From a virus, in the UHGV virus genome UHGV-2163177: DNA of 15,118 bases. One strand, given 5' to 3'. Both the position numbers and the translations under genes were made by a program. The notes beneath the pieces were generated by a model that saw nothing but the letters and a program-made list of their open reading frames with translations, ran no database searches and was not told the origin of the DNA. This document shows, piece after piece, positions 342-14,766 of this stretch (position 1 is the stretch's first letter; each line of letters begins with the position of its first letter).

Positions 342-1166
342 CTATTTCTTCTCTGTAATTTTTACACTGTTTTCCAACTGCTTGATGCTGACCTGCGGGG
401 TCGGCAACTCCTCAGGCATGGTTCCGCCAAGTTCCTGAATGGTTTGCCTCACCTTGCTACCCACGTCAAAGTGTGTGGTATTAGCTTGCTGTTTTGAATT
501 CACGCCATCCCGCTTGAGTTTTTCTTCTGTTTGGGTAGCTCGAAAGAGATTAGCCGCCAGTTCTGTTGAACCCATATGATCCAGGATCTTCTGACTCTTT
601 TTCAGCCCCTTCCGCTGATGGATGGCTTTCTGATCTAATCCACCATACAGCCCCCGGTAACCATGATTCTGAAATATGGCGAAATCGATAGCTGTCGCTA
701 CCCCAGCTTGCTGCGCTGCCTCAACCAATTGTTTGTTATGTTCTTTCAATTCATTTCTCAGAAAAAGACGCTTTTCGTCTTCACGAAGTTGCCTGAAAGC
801 TTCATCGTCAGCCAGCTCCTGCCGTCGGGTCTGGATAGCAAAATAAGTTTGCCCTGCCGCAATAACCGGTTTCGCAGGGTCGCCGTTTTGTACTACCAGG
901 TAACAGGCATAGCGGGAGAGATGAACATCTTCAAGTTCTCGTTGAGCCCCTGAACCTAATACAACCATTTTGGTGGTTTCAACGAAATGGTCAGATGCAG
1001 CTTGATTGCTGGCTTCGCACGCTTGAGTCGCGCGGGCCAGTACCTTTTGAAAATTGCGCCAGTCCCGATAATCCAGTAACGGTGCCAATTCTCTAGCTGA
1101 CCAAAATTCTTGCCCTTCAGTGCCATAATGCCGTATTTCTTCAAAAGGTTGATGATGTTCGTTCAT
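342..1166 (-). CDS. dinD: DNA damage-inducible protein D (BRO-N/DinD family), 274 aa
   Basis: ORF 342..1178; start placed at internal Met (MNEHHQ...) with GGAGTG SD 5-6 nt upstream. Perfect LexA box just upstream and position next to yicC match the known yicC-dinD arrangement. Protein recognised from memory, not searched. Confidence 0.8.
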   Translation of the reverse strand: MNEHHQPFEEIRHYGTEGQEFWSARELAPLLDYRDWRNFQKVLARATQACEASNQAASDHFVETTKMVVLGSGAQRELEDVHLSRYACYLVVQNGDPAKPVIAAGQTYFAIQTRRQELADDEAFRQLREDEKRLFLRNELKEHNKQLVEAAQQAGVATAIDFAIFQNHGYRGLYGGLDQKAIHQRKGLKKSQKILDHMGSTELAANLFRATQTEEKLKRDGVNSKQQANTTHFDVGSKVRQTIQELGGTMPEELPTPQVSIKQLENSVKITEKK

Positions 1167-1211
1167 TGCCCACTCCATGTGATATCGATTGCAAAGAAAG
1201 TAAATCTGTAA

Positions 1212-1528: not shown

Positions 1529-3517
1529 TTAGTTGTTAACTTGTACTTGTTCACAAGAAATATATCCCTGTCGTTTGTGTCTTCTCGCATGAGGAAATGC
1601 CAGTCTTATTTTTCCGGATCTTACTAATGGAACGAGCTGTTTTTCTCGTAGGTTCTGTGGTGTTCGGGCCATTAACTTTGCAATAACACTAAGCGGCATA
1701 TAATGGCCTGAGCAAAGCTTAAGTATGATTTCGTCCATGGTTTCGTTGGAAAGTCGTTTCTTTTCTCTGGCTAATGCAGATATGTCTTCTAACCGTTGCC
1801 TTAAGGTTGGTGAAAGGCACTCAAGGTTATCCACATAAGGAAAAGGTAGTTTCTCGGTTATAAAACGACCTAAAGCATCTCGTTCTTTTTCGTTATCCGT
1901 GATCAATTCTTCGTTATCCGTGATCAAATTATCGCTATCCGTGATGATTTGAGCTTCGTTTGCGAATGAGTTGTCTGTTGATAACGGATTTACACCAAAA
2001 ACTTCCTCTGGAGATGGAAGATCCTGCCCCGGTAATGTATATGATTTATTCCTCTTCTCACCATGAGGGACTAAGAATCCGCCGCTTACAAGGCGGGGTA
2101 AGGCTAAAGTTACCTCACGAGAGTGAAGGCTAGTTAGTTGACAAGCCCGTTCATGGTCAATCCACTTTTCTACGGCTGCAGTTATAACAATACTGCGCTC
2201 AAGCTCACTGAGATGGTCTACTTTGTCGCCAAATTTTGTATGGAGAAGATTGGCAATTTCTTCTGATACGAGGTTGCCAATAGATAGCTCCAAAAGTGTT
2301 TGTTCTGGTTCTGTTTTTTCATATAGCCTTGGCATACGCCAGTTAGCCCATTTCCAGCCACTAAATATTTTAGGGATCCCTGAGCCTGATCGTTCACCAG
2401 CACCAATAATTAAAAACATTTGATGCATCAGTCGGTTTCGACAATCGCTTTCATATCCTTTGATTGCTTGTTCTGGTGGCACGCGCATCAAACCTGGATT
2501 ACGGAAGCCAAATAGATCTGGTCGTTTCACAACCATGATGGAGATTCGTCCAGTATAATCGGCATGAACTAAGGTATTTACCAGCGCTTCACGCAATGCT
2601 GTGTGTATCTGAGTATCGTCCTGTCGGATACCTTCTTTAAGCTCAAAAGGGACTTTTAAGTCAGCAATTAGTTTTCGATAGGTTCGTCTGTAAAAGTCAA
2701 ACACGTTACCTGACCAAGTCCCATCGGGACATAGTCTATCTACCCATCTTCTTTCAGTTCTTGCTTCAGGGCGTTCTTGGTAATCCACAAAATAATTTGG
2801 GGCTACATCTTGTATCGCTTCCCATGTTCCAAACATGAGAATGCCAGCTAAGGTCATGCCTTCCAAACCTGTTTGCCGGTCTTTTCTATATCCCCCAATA
2901 CTTCGTAGGAAAGCAAAGTTATCTAGTTCGAGAGCTGGATGTGTCGGGTTTGAAGCAGATAGTAGATTTCTGTAAGCCAACAAGCTTTCTAGGTTAATAT
3001 CGTTCATGTCGAAGTTTTGTACGATACGGTTGTCGCGGCTTTCTTCAACCTGTTCGGCCATCATGCGACGAACTTGTTCTTCTGAACAACGATGATCACC
3101 GTCGTGCATACGAAACCATGTTTCTGACATGGGTTGATTATTCAAATAAACAGGTTTCTGTTCTCGTCGTGCGATTGGTATTTCAATGACAAGAATATCC
3201 TTTCCCTGTAAGGATACTGTTTGGACAGAGTTATTGGTAAGAAGATTAACGTTAACTTTTTTCTTGTTGCTCACGAGGTCGAAAAGCTGCTTTTTAACGG
3301 TATTTATATCTGAAATACCCGCAACGGAAAATTCCCCTTTTTTCTCTCTAATACCTAAAACCACATACCCACCACGGCAGTTTGCCATAGCACTATAGGT
3401 TGGCCAGAAATCATCAGGTAATTTACCTTGTCCGTCTTTCCCTTGAGCTAGCTTGAACTCTAGCTCTGCGGATTCCGAAAGTGCACGCAAGTCGCTAAGG
3501 TCAGATATTAGGAACAC
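1529..3517 (-). CDS. AlbA_2 (Schlafen-like) N-terminal domain plus HATPase_c_4-like ATPase domain protein, 662 aa; often mis-annotated as RecG-like helicase or transcriptional regulator
   Basis: Long ORF with GTG start 4 nt after a GGAGGA SD. N-terminal ESAELEFK motif is typical of AlbA_2; central ALREALVNTLVHADY motif is typical of HATPase_c_4. Domains read by eye. Confidence 0.75.
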   Translation of the reverse strand: MFLISDLSDLRALSESAELEFKLAQGKDGQGKLPDDFWPTYSAMANCRGGYVVLGIREKKGEFSVAGISDINTVKKQLFDLVSNKKKVNVNLLTNNSVQTVSLQGKDILVIEIPIARREQKPVYLNNQPMSETWFRMHDGDHRCSEEQVRRMMAEQVEESRDNRIVQNFDMNDINLESLLAYRNLLSASNPTHPALELDNFAFLRSIGGYRKDRQTGLEGMTLAGILMFGTWEAIQDVAPNYFVDYQERPEARTERRWVDRLCPDGTWSGNVFDFYRRTYRKLIADLKVPFELKEGIRQDDTQIHTALREALVNTLVHADYTGRISIMVVKRPDLFGFRNPGLMRVPPEQAIKGYESDCRNRLMHQMFLIIGAGERSGSGIPKIFSGWKWANWRMPRLYEKTEPEQTLLELSIGNLVSEEIANLLHTKFGDKVDHLSELERSIVITAAVEKWIDHERACQLTSLHSREVTLALPRLVSGGFLVPHGEKRNKSYTLPGQDLPSPEEVFGVNPLSTDNSFANEAQIITDSDNLITDNEELITDNEKERDALGRFITEKLPFPYVDNLECLSPTLRQRLEDISALAREKKRLSNETMDEIILKLCSGHYMPLSVIAKLMARTPQNLREKQLVPLVRSGKIRLAFPHARRHKRQGYISCEQVQVNN
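1890..1952. repeat. Three tandem copies of a 21-bp unit (tcgttatccgtgatcaa...) inside the 1529..3517 CDS, in frame
   Basis: Units at 1890-1910, 1911-1931, 1932-1952; the first 16 nt are identical in units 1 and 2. Encodes heptad-like ITDSDNL/ITDNEEL/ITDNEKE. Confidence 0.85.
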
Positions 3518-4347: not shown

Positions 4348-4875
4348 TCATTGATGGTCTGATTTTTCCCATTCAGCCAGGGCGTTTAGCCCGGCTTCAC
4401 TCCATGATTCCAGTTCATCGGGATAATCACCTGCAACATAGCAGAGTTCGCAACGCAGCATACGAATTGCCAGCCTGGCATTACCTCGCAAATTGTATTT
4501 TTCAAAGTAATGCTGCCCTTCATCATCCTCAAGGCAGATAGCACCATCATCAAGAAAGTGCACTTCCCAGCCTAATTCCCCGGCTGCATACAGCACACGC
4601 TGCTGTATGTCATCGTCCGTTACTGGCGAAGGAATTTTACCGTCTCTGGCCTTAACTGCTTTCCAGAACTCGCCCCACGTCATTTCCAGCGTTCTTTCTG
4701 GCCACATTTCAGAAACGGTGTCTTTCCCTTGTGCCGGTGGGCTGTTCCGCTGCTCTGTCGCCTCCACATCAATTTTTTTGCCAGACATGATCACTTCGCC
4801 TTTCTCGATCCAGTCGTAAACTGTCTGGCGGCTTACGCCTTTGTATTTGGCGTATTCGGCTTTACTCATCAACAT
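4348..4875 (-). CDS. Putative HTH DNA-binding protein, 175 aa (N-terminal KYKGVSRQTVYDWIEKGEV helix-turn-helix)
   Basis: ORF 4348..4884; start placed at the ATG with GAGGTGA SD 5 nt upstream (the track start is a GTG three codons earlier). Confidence 0.65.
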   Translation of the reverse strand: MLMSKAEYAKYKGVSRQTVYDWIEKGEVIMSGKKIDVEATEQRNSPPAQGKDTVSEMWPERTLEMTWGEFWKAVKARDGKIPSPVTDDDIQQRVLYAAGELGWEVHFLDDGAICLEDDEGQHYFEKYNLRGNARLAIRMLRCELCYVAGDYPDELESWSEAGLNALAEWEKSDHQ

Positions 4876-4974
4876 GTAGCTCACCTCATGCGTATACGAT
4901 AAAAAATAATTTCATGCGGAAAGGGAATGCGTTGTGGGTATGGAGGAAAGGGGCAATAACCGCCCCTTACTGAT

Positions 4975-7565: not shown

Positions 7566-9380
7566 TTAATTTTTGCCATCGTCATTTGTGACCGATGCAC
7601 ATGAGGGCATCCAGTCTTCTGAATCCTCTGTCAGTATCACGTTTGAACGCAAGCCATGCTTCGTTTTCCGTTTCATATACTCCCTGCCGTATTCCGCCAT
7701 TGCCCCTGGCATATCCTTACCGAAGCGTGTCAGTGTTACGGGCTTACCGAATCCGTGTGCCCTCATATACGCCAGATAGGCGTGATAGAGATACCTGCGC
7801 GGGCTGAACGGAATAATTTCAGCATTACCCACTAACAGGCCATCGCACATTACCGACGACATGAGATAGCCGCAGAAGTCCACCAGCGAATCGCCCTCGC
7901 GTTTTATCACCAAGGCTTCTTCTGATTTCTGCTGCTCATATAGCAGGCGTTTAGCTTCGTCCTGGTCAGAAAAGCGTGTAAGCAGGTGGCGAATCACTAC
8001 CGCCAGCTCTCCTTCTATTTTTTCAGCCAGCATAGGGTCACGTTCGTTCTCCGGTACAACTTCCGAAAAATTGAATATTACCCGACGACGTGATATCCCA
8101 CCGCTGCGGTCACTGAATGACATGGCGTTATTGTTCACCGCCAGCACGACCGCCTGAATGCGTGTTGAGTAGGGGGCTTTATGTTTCGGGTCGATTGCCA
8201 CCTTATCACCGCCTGTAATGGCCTTAATCCCTGCACCATCACCAGCGTAACGGGTCATATCCGGCATGATAATCAGCGAAAAGCCAACCACTAACGCACG
8301 TTCCCTGGCATCTTCCAGCGCCTTCATGCTTGCCGATACCGTGTTGGCCTTACCCGCCAGCATAGTGCAAATCTCCGCCATTACGCTTTTACCGCTTCCA
8401 CCCGGCCCCGTTACCTCAAGAAATAACTGCCAGTCGTACCGATTCGCCAGCACCATGAATAACGCCGCCAGTACGCGATCTGCCTTGCGGTCATTCTCAG
8501 CCACCGAACGGCGCAACCACTTCCAGAAATTCGGCGCATGTGTTGCCAGCGTTTCCCCCTCTGCTGGTGGGCTGAAAGGTAATTCACTGGCAATTAACAA
8601 CCAGTCGTTTTTGTTATGCTCCCGAAAATTACCAGTTCTGGTATCAAATACCCCGTTACTGAATCCAATCAGGTTACGGGCTGTATTCCCCATTACGGGC
8701 AAACTTAACTTCATGGTATCGACCGCCGATTTGATGGCGTTCTGCGAATAGCTGATTTCCGCATCAATAAAAATCTGCGCCATAGCCCGCTGTAACTCTT
8801 TATCCTGTACCGGCTCCCATACAACACCGTTGTAGTGGTGAACGGTGTCAGAATCCGCATTGATTGCCAGTTCACCGCCATAATGTGCCAGGAGAACTTC
8901 GCCGCGCTGGCTTGCTCCCATCTGGTTAAGTGCCAGTGGTGTCGCGCTGTCTTCTGTTTTTTTCTTTGCCGGAAACCGGATAATCAGTCCGTCATCAATG
9001 TTTTTACGCTCACGGGCAAGGTATTCACGCCAGTTCTCACACTTCTGGCTGTGCATGCCATCAGGGTAATAATTCGCATTCTGTATACTTGCCGCCGCCA
9101 GCTTCTGACCAATTGCCTTAACCATTACAGGATCTAACTGTCCGGCTCTGAATATGCGCGCGGATGTGCGCCCATCAGGCACTATTTGCAGATTTCCGAT
9201 CTCTTTCAGTTGTTCATCAGCCAGCACAACAGGTGGCTCATTATCTCCAGCCATACGCGCATCGTGTTCCTGCCATTGTTTCGCGTGTGCCCAGGCATCA
9301 CTACCCGCGAAAATAATTACCTCTGTGTCTTTGTGTTTTATTCCGCGTGGCTGTTTTTTTACGTTCGGTGCCAGTTTCAT
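7566..9380 (-). CDS. P4-family primase/helicase-like protein, 604 aa (P4 alpha-like helicase and origin-binding region; the N-terminal primase domain appears to be missing)
   Basis: Walker A TGPGGSGKS; IKAITGGDKVAIDPKHKAPY...RRRVIFNFS matches the P4-family primase C-terminal (SF3 helicase) pattern; GGGGGG SD; start overlaps upstream stop. Confidence 0.85.
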   Translation of the reverse strand: MKLAPNVKKQPRGIKHKDTEVIIFAGSDAWAHAKQWQEHDARMAGDNEPPVVLADEQLKEIGNLQIVPDGRTSARIFRAGQLDPVMVKAIGQKLAAASIQNANYYPDGMHSQKCENWREYLARERKNIDDGLIIRFPAKKKTEDSATPLALNQMGASQRGEVLLAHYGGELAINADSDTVHHYNGVVWEPVQDKELQRAMAQIFIDAEISYSQNAIKSAVDTMKLSLPVMGNTARNLIGFSNGVFDTRTGNFREHNKNDWLLIASELPFSPPAEGETLATHAPNFWKWLRRSVAENDRKADRVLAALFMVLANRYDWQLFLEVTGPGGSGKSVMAEICTMLAGKANTVSASMKALEDARERALVVGFSLIIMPDMTRYAGDGAGIKAITGGDKVAIDPKHKAPYSTRIQAVVLAVNNNAMSFSDRSGGISRRRVIFNFSEVVPENERDPMLAEKIEGELAVVIRHLLTRFSDQDEAKRLLYEQQKSEEALVIKREGDSLVDFCGYLMSSVMCDGLLVGNAEIIPFSPRRYLYHAYLAYMRAHGFGKPVTLTRFGKDMPGAMAEYGREYMKRKTKHGLRSNVILTEDSEDWMPSCASVTNDDGKN

Positions 9381-12342: not shown

Positions 12343-12561
12343 TCAGGCTGATGTGTTTCGGCGTTCTTCCAGCCAGCGATTAATCTCTACCGCATCGAAT
12401 GCAGTGCTTTTCTCACCCAGTTTGATGGGCTTAGGCATCTTCCCGCTACGTACCCAACGATCGAGCGTTGATAAGCTGGTACCCAGCAATTCAGCCAGGC
12501 GATAGCGGCGGATATAGCCAGTTGCAGGGATTGCGGTTTGAAGTATTGGTTGGTTTTTCAT
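12343..12561 (-). CDS. AlpA-family transcriptional regulator/excisionase-like protein, 72 aa (start may be 12570)
   Basis: YIRRYRLAELLGTSLSTLDRWVRSGKMPKPIKLGEKSTAFDAVEINRWL is the typical AlpA/Vis HTH pattern; the N-terminal extension in the ORF track is unlikely. Confidence 0.7.
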   Translation of the reverse strand: MKNQPILQTAIPATGYIRRYRLAELLGTSLSTLDRWVRSGKMPKPIKLGEKSTAFDAVEINRWLEERRNTSA

Positions 12562-12673
12562 ATGCCCCATTACCTTTGTTGTTGGTTTGTGATTTGTAAT
12601 AGGGGCATTAAATAACAAATGAAATGATGTGTGTGTGAGTTTTAGAAAAAACACTGTGACTTTTCTTATTTCA

Positions 12674-13456
12674 CTATCTAAAACGCTCTCGCCAGCTTTT
12701 CCAAGTGTTCTTATCTGGTTGTGGGATTACAATGCCTTTTTGAGCACCTATTTGTGCAATTTTTTTATTTAACTTGTTAGGCGGCAAAGATATTATCTCA
12801 TTGTCTGTTAACCCGGCAATTCTTAATAATCCATATATCATTTTAAATTGATGTATTGTTAATCTTGGTAACTTGTGATTTTCTTTTTTTATAGTGTTGT
12901 TTATGGAGTAAATTGGAAATCCATTTGTTATTGATTTATAAAGGTTGTCAATGTGCTCTCTGGTTATTAATAATGAATCAGGTGTAATCTTAATGTTGCC
13001 GCTTGTTTTTGCATGGCATGAAAAAATAAATGTGGGATTCGCAGTGCGACGTGAAAGCGGTATGGATGTATTCATAGAGATAGTTTTGTTTCTTACTATA
13101 GTCTCTTGAATATCAAAAACTCCAGAAACCTTTGCCTCAAAAATAACACCATTTTCTTTTATTTCATCACTATATTCATGAATAATTATGCCAAGAGAGG
13201 AAATTTCTTTTTTGATGAGAAAAGAAATAAAATCAATATAGTCTTCATCCTTTGGCCATGTAAAATCACGATAACCAAAATACCCCTCACAGTAAGCATT
13301 TTTTATTTTTGTGGCAAAATTAATTCTGTTAATATCCTGCCAATGCCATAAATCATCTATTTCACATTCTAAAATTTGAGCTGCTCTATCTAAAGAGCAG
13401 AATTCTAATGGAGGTAATTGTTTTTTTTGCCATATTGTTTCATTAATATTTGTCAT
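12674..13456 (-). CDS. Hypothetical protein, 260 aa, strongly AT-rich orphan between int and the alpA-like gene
   Basis: Long uninterrupted ORF with A/T-biased codons (Ile/Asn/Lys-rich); no family recognised by eye; weak SD. Confidence 0.6.
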   Translation of the reverse strand: MTNINETIWQKKQLPPLEFCSLDRAAQILECEIDDLWHWQDINRINFATKIKNAYCEGYFGYRDFTWPKDEDYIDFISFLIKKEISSLGIIIHEYSDEIKENGVIFEAKVSGVFDIQETIVRNKTISMNTSIPLSRRTANPTFIFSCHAKTSGNIKITPDSLLITREHIDNLYKSITNGFPIYSINNTIKKENHKLPRLTIHQFKMIYGLLRIAGLTDNEIISLPPNKLNKKIAQIGAQKGIVIPQPDKNTWKSWRERFR

Positions 13457-13512
13457 GATTGCACTACCGTTATGAAAAAATATATTCGTTAATGAATTAG
13501 CCTTAATGTCTA

Positions 13513-14766
13513 TTATTTATTAGATTGCGTGATGTCAGAACATATCATGTTTTCTAAATTCACCAGCAAATCAGTCCATTGTGCTAGTGCCGCTTTGCGC
13601 TCATCAAAATATTGATGGCGGTTATAAATGCCCTCTACGCCTTTTATGCGGTGGTTAAGGCATCGTTCAGCAACGATCGGGTCAACTCCCAATGCTGCTA
13701 AATGTGTTCGTGCTGTTCGCCGGAAGTCGTGAATTGTAAAGTTGGGGACGTTCGGCATTTCTGCTCTGACTTTTGCCAATGCAACAGGAAGGGTGCTTTC
13801 CTGGATGTGAGGGATCATTCTGTGCTGCATTTTTCTGGCAGGTAATACCCATGCGCTATTGCATGAAAATGTATGCAATTCTCGCAACCATTCTATAGCC
13901 GCTGGTGGCAATGGTATGTCGATAGCATCACCATTTTTAGTTCGTTGTTCTGGTAGATGCCAAATCGCGCCATCTAAGTCGAATTCATCCCACTTGGCGG
14001 CGCATAATTCCATTTTTCTGACACACAACGCCAGGAGCAACTTAAAGGTTAATTCGTTCTGGCGGCTGAATCCTTTGGCTTTACGCATTGCCTGAAAAAA
14101 TTGGATTAATTCGTCCCGGTTCAGCCAACGATCACGAGATAATTCTTTCCCACCAGCATCTGAAACTTCGAAAGCTGAGCAGGGGTTAACTTCCAAAGCA
14201 AGGCGTTTAATACCGTAGTCAAATATGCGACGTGTCCAGCGAAGAACGTCAGTAGCAATTGTTGGAGCGCCTCTATCAACAATACTTTTAAGCATAGCAT
14301 CAATATGGCGTGGTTTTACATCTTCAACCTTCATGTGGCCTATGGCTGGATTTATGTCTTTATCAATGCGCCTACGGAGAATATCTGGGTGTTTCCACCG
14401 GGGAAGTATTTGCCGTTCAAAGTATTCGGCGGCAAGTTCAGAAACGTGCAGCGCGTTTTTTTCGGCTTCTATTTTTGCCAGTGCTTCGGCTTTACGCTGC
14501 TGTTTTTCTGCGGCTACGTCATATCCCAAAGCAACTCGTGCGGAAAGTTCTTTTGCCCGTTCCCTCGCTTTTGATAACGATAATTCAGAATATGAACCAA
14601 TAAGCATGGCACGAGATTTTCCTGCTAGTTTATATCGAAACCGCCAGGTAGGGGATCTATCCACCTCTCTATACCGGAGATATAGCCCACCACCATCAGC
14701 ACGACCTTCGAAATGTTCTCCGGCTTTTATCCATGCGCGGATCTGCATATCTGTGAGTTTTGGCAT
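13513..14766 (-). CDS. int: Tyrosine integrase, P4-type (IntA/IntS-like), 417 aa
   Basis: N-terminal arm-binding-type domain (GGGLYLRYREV...WRFRYK); C-terminal catalytic region with HDFRRTARTHL and conserved Tyr region; located just inside attR. Confidence 0.9.
   Translation of the reverse strand: MPKLTDMQIRAWIKAGEHFEGRADGGGLYLRYREVDRSPTWRFRYKLAGKSRAMLIGSYSELSLSKARERAKELSARVALGYDVAAEKQQRKAEALAKIEAEKNALHVSELAAEYFERQILPRWKHPDILRRRIDKDINPAIGHMKVEDVKPRHIDAMLKSIVDRGAPTIATDVLRWTRRIFDYGIKRLALEVNPCSAFEVSDAGGKELSRDRWLNRDELIQFFQAMRKAKGFSRQNELTFKLLLALCVRKMELCAAKWDEFDLDGAIWHLPEQRTKNGDAIDIPLPPAAIEWLRELHTFSCNSAWVLPARKMQHRMIPHIQESTLPVALAKVRAEMPNVPNFTIHDFRRTARTHLAALGVDPIVAERCLNHRIKGVEGIYNRHQYFDERKAALAQWTDLLVNLENMICSDITQSNK

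Follow-up and report, generated by a model that had tools for sequence, protein, structure and literature searches.

The only description found in the literature of a gene lying between the integrase gene (int) and alpA of a phage satellite comes from the PICMIs (phage-inducible chromosomal minimalist islands) of the Vibrionaceae (PMC10803314). In PICMI115 this gene, iolg, shares an ATGA overlap with int and is needed for helper-induced excision and transfer, and its deletion is rescued by int/iolg in trans. Among PICMI subfamilies, 21 of 35 carry iolg and four carry an ‘int contiguous gene’ (icg), which together make up 13 families whose function is not known. Int, IOLG and phage-induced AlpA were proposed to form an excision complex, with alpA, not iolg, acting as the induced switch (PMC10803314). 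How helper phages switch on Gram-negative satellites, and how Int, AlpA and the int-adjacent gene cooperate, are still open questions (PMC6092414, PMC10803314). The same slot is described here for the virus genome UHGV-2163177, of which the whole stretch analysed, 15,118 nt, is termed the window. It holds a 260-aa gene, X (12674–13456, minus strand, stop codon included), which on profile evidence is a member of a large, fast-evolving and unannotated protein family, and which has, in our judgement, an even chance of being a backbone accessory that serves the excision/induction module together with Int and AlpA.

The parallel with IOLG and ICG is one of position and of general behaviour. X likewise has int on one side and alpA on the other, all three co-oriented, and both groups occur in most but not all elements, are very divergent and have no annotated function. 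Some members of the X family share the ATGA overlap, two of them in fis-site elements with the PICMI att repeat, whereas the X of the window lies 56 nt from int within a larger, yicC-site satellite of E. coli; the ‘contiguous’ class of PMC10803314, with which this gap is to be compared, sets no numeric limit. IOLG and ICG were split into 13 families in that study, while for the X family one profile brings together at least 181 cluster representatives. A reading made earlier from the sequence alone had named, as the finding that would speak against cargo, an invariant gene matching a conserved integration or regulation factor; X fits the iolg/icg position class, but is far from invariant.

X is a genuine protein-coding gene, identified as an open reading frame that begins with ATG and runs for 260 codons, by matches to the family hidden Markov model (HMM), which also finds its counterpart in every related locus, and by an AlphaFold2 model. 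At its composition about 8% of random codons would be stops, and a frame this long would not stay open by chance. Of 12 complete E. coli genomes sharing ≥99% identity, 11 keep all 260 codons uninterrupted; in strain ABU 83972 a nonsense mutation, G209*, removes most of the C-terminal domain, which is why PGAP annotates a 208-aa product there (L001 16531–17157, equivalent to 12830–13456 of the window; comparison loci are cited by L numbers). The sequence-only reading had picked out an AT-rich long frame between the integrase and an alpA-like gene, and this is real, with a GC content of 31.2% in X (24.5% at third codon positions), 45.5% in int and 50.9% in alpA. The AT-rich leader it had noted corresponds to the 56-nt int–X spacer (13457–13512, minus strand; 28.6% GC). 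On the X strand of this spacer a promoter/terminator scan found no terminator-like site, and the signal around X was no higher than in shuffled sequence.

Searches of Pfam, NCBIfam, PHROGs and PADLOC gave no credible match to X, those to Enolase_C (E 0.15) and phrog_20768 (E 0.017) being noise, and none was found among 50,697 phage records. A word-indexed protein search returned about 6–8 relatives (six clusters at first). An exhaustive HMMER search through 1.84 billion cluster representatives retrieved 181 with E≤1e-3, of which 28 reached E≤1e-10; almost all of the 181 are 260–350 aa long. Homologues usually match X over two stretches, approximately residues 5–55 and 155–259. Alignments revealed an N-terminal signature, W..PPLEYCS..RAA.LL.CE..D..HW; an invariant glycine, G112, in an ‘SGxW’ motif; a helix motif, ‘DLxITRxDIExIY’; and a C-terminal block, R.T.HQ..MI..LL...G.SDDEI...SP..LN.KL...A.KG...P.PDK.TW..WR. 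All public names of members are ‘hypothetical protein’, and Pfam assigned no domain across 48 of them, with scattered single matches only. X had previously been called an orphan, a label that does not survive 181 cluster representatives and synteny conserved over four orders. Nor does the proposal of a horizontally acquired single-gene module fare better, as the slot is nearly always held by one superfamily across Enterobacterales, Aeromonadales, Alteromonadales and Vibrionales, and the AT-richness from which acquisition had been read is shared by the family. In 11 of 11 satellite contexts measured, X homologues are 6.5–20 percentage points lower in GC than their own int and alpA; low GC is therefore a family trait and no sign of recent acquisition, so that AT bias is uninformative on recent transfer of X. 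The profile now to hand allows the family to be annotated, and unites many ‘unknown’ int-adjacent genes, from Vibrionales to E. coli.

No property of the family is better conserved than its position beside int and alpA. Contexts were drawn from annotated genomes, species-representative genomes, IMG/VR contigs and assembly look-ups, and neighbouring genes were scored with the window’s own proteins and the family HMM. Among 25 non-redundant contexts whose upstream flank could be read, about 24 have a same-strand integrase directly upstream, and in most an AlpA-like gene lies about 95–120 nt downstream. The hosts comprise Escherichia, Leclercia, Pluralibacter, Raoultella, Buttiauxella, Klebsiella and Enterobacter/Citrobacter, together with Aeromonas, Tolumonas, Rheinheimera, Grimontia, Enterovibrio and Salinivibrio, in addition to IMG/VR contigs; a search with the Grimontia homologue found its relatives in Salinivibrio, Enterovibrio and Aeromonas. 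The arrangement must be old, because the linked integrases are as little as 27–31% identical to that of the window. The int–X gap ranges from −4, the ATGA overlap seen in three members (L025, L043 and L047), through 3 nt (L012, L062 and L063), to mostly about 95 nt, and for two of the three overlapping members the element is delimited by AATACGGCATGAACTAA, which is the att repeat at the fis end in PICMI satellites. The entire element in Enterovibrio and Salinivibrio consists of int, X, alpA and primase/rep, followed by a type I restriction-modification system; in these minimal satellites recognisable cargo lies beyond the replication gene, and X is kept in the backbone between int and alpA.

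Two departures from the single-copy arrangement were observed. In Leclercia adecarboxylata and Pluralibacter gergoviae two tandem, diverged X paralogues (~38% identical) lie between int and alpA (L007 5980–6765 and 6799–7548; L057 3001–3783 and 3823–4572). In Klebsiella pneumoniae a stand-alone member (L005 5004–5885; 293 aa, 47.7% GC) with a different, acidic C-terminus is flanked by a WbuC cupin gene and cynR at approximately 1.1 kb from tRNA-Arg(CCT), and neither int nor alpA lies co-oriented beside it. An identical, intact protein is present on at least 1000 Klebsiella contigs, and looks fixed in this genus.

An AlphaFold2 model of X, built from a 48-sequence alignment (pLDDT 86, pTM 0.69), predicts three parts: an N-terminal winged helix of excisionase/MerR type (aa 1–47; 13316–13456, minus strand), which carries the family signature; a variable alpha/beta middle domain (aa 48–195; 12872–13315, minus strand) containing the invariant G112 and an ‘LLITRxxIDxLY’ helix (aa 160–178); and a small, conserved C-terminal domain of four helices (aa 196–260; 12677–12871, minus strand) with a net charge of +8. 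The modelled N-terminal domain shows the strand-helix-helix-wing order of this fold, and its structural matches include CbpM, a protein-binding MerR-fold protein. The helix-turn-helix (HTH)-like stretch suspected at the N-terminus in the sequence-only reading is a winged helix in the model. Pfam and NCBIfam gave no match of X to HTH_17, Phage_AlpA, Exc or MerR, with none in 48 family members at E≤1, nor was there a match of X to HTH_3/XRE. Across the family the middle domain is acidic (median charge −9), the C-terminal domain has a median charge of +2, and the proteins are acidic overall. A structure search of BFVD gave no match at E≤0.001. Matches to pentatricopeptide proteins in the PDB (E to 8e-20) are an artefact, in which a weak, short motif is summed over designed repeats, every single-stretch E being above 20.

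Excisionases, including the lambda-type Xis proteins, TorI, AlpA/Vis, Pukovnik Xis and the GIsul2 excisionase, resemble X in being encoded beside the integrase. They differ in several respects: X, at 260 aa, has four times their length and two additional domains, and is not a small basic protein; Pfam HTH_17, Phage_AlpA and Exc match neither X nor 47 relatives; the helix corresponding to the DNA-reading one of excisionases is acidic; and the element of the window already has an AlpA.

Content of the int–alpA slot varies widely, even between closely related elements. Integrase pairs that are 86–99% identical flank X proteins that match along part of the sequence, at approximately 30–35% identity, or else a gene not related to X. 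One yicC-site integrase clade is represented in 289 E. coli genomes; of these, 12 have the window-type X in the slot, 77 have a 321-aa relative there, and in 112 an unrelated gene of 216 aa takes its place. This last gene is exemplified by E. coli strain 20 (L003 4291–4941), where a 99%-identical integrase lies upstream and overlaps it through ATGA; it has no Pfam or PADLOC match, and its comparison with the X family by hhalign gave a faint similarity confined to the C-terminal region (probability 4.5%, pairwise E 0.009). In int, E. coli H2 and CFSAN018748 (L060 and L061) differ from the window by 33–34 nt, against one each in X and alpA, while L017 and L023 show a dS of 1.17 in int and 0.17 in X, contrasts that place a recombination breakpoint just downstream of int (13457–13512). 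The slot therefore behaves as a hypervariable, cassette-like locus, and the earlier suggestion that this interval varies across related elements, between the window-type X, the 321-aa relative, the 216-aa gene or none, proved correct.

The explanation we put forward, at even strength, is that X is an accessory of the excision/induction module. X would be made together with the integrase and would work with Int and AlpA in excision and induction, as proposed for IOLG of PICMI115; its conserved ends would couple it to the shared machinery, with the variable middle giving element-specific or helper-specific behaviour. In favour of this reading are the breadth of the family and its synteny, the ATGA coupling to int, the retention of X in minimal satellites, a predicted N-terminal fold like that of excisionases and MerR proteins, the lack of any effector fold among the structural matches, a dN/dS of 0.19 in one pair, and the need for iolg in the excision of PICMI115. 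A number of observations weigh against this. In one pair of elements the integrases are 99% identical and the X proteins 35%, and in another AlpA is 94% identical and X 31%; for a cofactor that fits a cognate recombinase, varying apart from int and alpA is odd. EcCICFT073 has no gene at all in its int–alpA interval, and nevertheless excises upon helper induction (PMC6092414). The presumed recognition helix (helix 2) is acidic (charge −4 in X; median across the family −3), which makes canonical DNA binding by the modelled N-terminal domain doubtful, and for that reason DNA binding by this domain is not assumed here. The termini of PICMI115 IOLG, deduced from the published primers (MSELNKED... 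and ...VFSYKNPFD), match none of approximately 155 X-family proteins, so the link between the two is positional, reinforced by the ATGA overlap at the same att site, rather than demonstrated homology. A second pair of X genes has a dN/dS of 0.68. Finally, the stand-alone Klebsiella homologue argues that family members can act alone. Searches for iolg itself by the published primers were likewise negative: a 29-mer was absent from viral contigs, a 20-mer had six chance matches in metagenomes, none accompanied by the other primers, and none of the Vibrio locus tags of the PICMI paper was among the matches of the Grimontia homologue search.

A tentative alternative, which we consider possible though not probable, is that X acts at the alpA promoter as a regulator or sensor and thereby determines which helper switches alpA on, in functional analogy to the logic of Stl in staphylococcal pathogenicity islands; its basic C-terminal domain would bind repeats after its own stop codon, and its middle domain would recognise a helper-phage protein. 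Right after the X stop lies an imperfect palindrome, AGAAAAGTCACAGTGTTTTTTCT (12644–12666), with a third half-site, AAAACTCACAC (12633–12643), and we infer that the whole, 12633–12666 on the minus strand, is a candidate operator of the alpA promoter. The layout AAAAATCTC-N3-GAGATTTTT, then AAAACTCCC, follows the stop in five relatives that share the C-terminal type (L007, L030, L057, L058 and L059), despite divergence of the DNA on either side. Where X is of another type, different repeats or hairpins are found, even if AlpA is 94% identical, as in L004 and L007, which differ both in X type and in post-stop repeats. The palindrome could be an operator bound by X, but this correlation comes from few loci and simple linkage of adjacent DNA could account for it. 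X ends approximately 100 nt upstream of alpA in nearly all elements, and conserved ends around a variable middle give it a sensor-like architecture. Stl too adjoins int, is extremely divergent between similar islands, and combines conserved and variable parts, as expected of a sensor for different helper-phage proteins; X differs in having no XRE-type HTH and in being co-oriented with, rather than divergent from, the genes it would control. Gram-negative PICIs (phage-inducible chromosomal islands) are, moreover, switched on by AlpA activation and not by derepression as with Stl, and the helper induction of alpA in them is unexplained (PMC6092414). PIME1 elements need, for excision, a LuxR-family regulator encoded in a regulatory region with alpA (bioRxiv 10.64898/2026.01.12.698999). 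The +8 charge that would favour DNA binding by the C-terminal domain falls to about +2 family-wide in proteins that are acidic overall, and no known DNA-binding family matches X. EcCICFT073 is helper-induced with its slot empty, and in PICMI115 the induced switch is alpA and not iolg (PMC10803314).

One elaboration would make X the missing specificity determinant of Gram-negative satellite induction, its middle domain binding a helper-phage protein; we think this improbable, and equally so its corollary that the winged-helix and C-terminal domains couple the signal to the Int/AlpA complex or to the alpA-promoter repeats. Were it true, swapping X cassettes would re-target a satellite to a new helper, and the X family would be a Gram-negative counterpart of Stl with an unrelated fold. 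In either role, as excision cofactor or helper-specificity module, the family provides a tractable E. coli example and a concrete hypothesis. What is new is that the int-adjacent ‘unknown’ genes of many elements make up a single recognisable family, with a defined domain plan around a hypervariable core.

The sequence-only reading had proposed cargo, possibly for defence or abortive infection; that X is single-gene anti-phage, abortive-infection or superinfection-exclusion cargo which happens to sit in a recombination-prone slot we now hold to be unlikely. The slot is indeed hypervariable and cassette-like, with recombination breakpoints on both sides, the dN/dS of 0.68 would suit such a gene, and a stand-alone homologue is maintained in Klebsiella; the hypervariability and this homologue are the strongest arguments for cargo. 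Satellites do carry defence genes, with accessory genes of Gram-positive PICIs located at the 3′ end or between int and stl (PMC6092414), and UP2 of PICMI115, a gene of unknown function, proved to be a defence gene (PMC10803314). The integrase-proximal defence hotspots of P4-like satellites and PICIs are similarly recombination-prone and polymorphic, but they hold many unrelated, recognisable defence systems, whereas the X slot holds mostly one superfamily, at times translationally coupled to int, with no defence signature. PADLOC (PADLOC-DB 2.0) matched X to no family at E≤10; of three other slot genes, those of L002 and L003 had none, and the 321-aa relative (L004) had a marginal match to PDC-S31 (E=0.002). 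Structure comparisons found no nuclease, NTPase, TIR, SIR2, toxin or membrane fold in X. In addition to the lack of a match in phage records and the family-wide low GC, minimal satellites retain X while their recognised defence genes are distal to the primase. A defence or abortive-infection role for X is thus unsupported, which removes a false lead for defence-gene hunting. That the X frame is decaying or does not function, and so plays no role today, is very improbable indeed: the G209* mutation, a truncated copy in one IMG/VR relative (L019) and the absence of the gene from some functional satellites are set against a frame intact in 11 of the 12 complete E. coli genomes, a dN/dS of 0.19 in one pair, a confidently predicted fold, and motifs conserved across orders.

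A third exact copy of AAAACTCACA occurs at 14752–14761, over codons 2–5 of int, where conservation of the MPKLTD-coding stretch may be all that accounts for it. Allowing one mismatch, the window shows no enrichment of the 10-mer AAAASTCACA (five found, 2.6 expected).

A hairpin over the start of alpA, conserved among elements, is newly described here, and could shield the gene from read-through translation. In the window, CCCCTATTAC pairs with GGTAATGGGG (12565–12605, minus strand), covering the alpA ribosome-binding site and start codon, with the upstream arm approximately 25 nt 5′ of these. Across 17 elements with a slot gene, the minimum free energy of the region −55 to +6 of alpA has a mean z of about −3 relative to dinucleotide shuffles, and z is below −2 in 12 of them; the arm sequences themselves differ between elements. 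RNAalifold of nine related alpA leaders returned a 9-bp stem with four compensatory pairs. In three elements without a slot gene z ranged from +0.4 to −0.9, the hairpin being weak or absent, and the fold controls were flat (mean z 0.05 for X starts, −0.58 for the gene after alpA). A −10-like hexamer lies directly 5′ of the upstream arm, a placement by which transcripts from the alpA promoter may omit this arm, while int–X read-through would include it. The hairpin may insulate alpA from translation of int–X read-through transcripts, with a logic similar to that of fold-back inhibition in IS10.

The element itself is inserted in E. coli between yicC and dinD, and the window DNA matches 12 complete E. 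coli genomes at 98–100% identity, including ABU 83972 and EcPF14. A P4-type tyrosine integrase (13513–14766, minus strand; Pfam Arm-DNA-bind_3, Phage_int_M and Phage_integrase) adjoins X upstream and yicC in the source genome, and alpA, encoding an AlpA/HTH_17 regulator-excisionase (12343–12570, minus strand; Pfam Phage_AlpA, E 8e-9, and PGAP), adjoins X downstream; both are co-oriented with it. From int the gene order is X, alpA, antA, YlcI/YnfO, Icd-like, DUF4222 and a D5-type primase (7566–9380, minus strand), followed by an SSB remnant, ProQ/FinO, PerC and a 662-aa Schlafen/AlbA_2 protein. Judged by gene content, this is an AlpA-type phage satellite (Gram-negative PICI/PICMI-like), with co-oriented int, alpA and primase, no structural phage genes and a site-specific insertion. 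Most backbone genes are held in common with the characterised satellite EcCICFT073, whose set is parallel in YlcI, Icd-like, DUF4222, primase, SSB and PerC, and the layout fits the zones ‘integration, Bro, replication, late’ of PMC10111431. No tRNAs were found in the window, and an Rfam scan of it found no family.

At the distal end of the island, adjoining dinD, the 662-aa protein (1529–3517, minus strand) combines Schlafen/AlbA_2 and HATPase_c_4 domains and has partial PADLOC matches to pAgo-associated models (E 1.7e-8); as accessory or defence cargo it is more plausible than X. Also in the distal island, a 178-aa frame (4348–4884, minus strand), annotated by PGAP in ABU 83972 as a 528-nt hypothetical gene, has a weak N-terminal match to the AlpA-like HTH_17 (E 1.3e-4). 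The flanking chromosomal dinD (342–1178, minus strand) matches the PADLOC candidate family PDC-S13 (E 8e-125) and, additionally, the N-terminal part of a type I specificity-subunit model. Two IMG/VR contigs, L013 and L014, share an identical int–X–alpA–antA module with L015 and the window but carry a primase of another allele (E 1e-158 to 1e-173, where the window type scores 0.0), a pattern that shows the integration and replication zones exchanging as modules.

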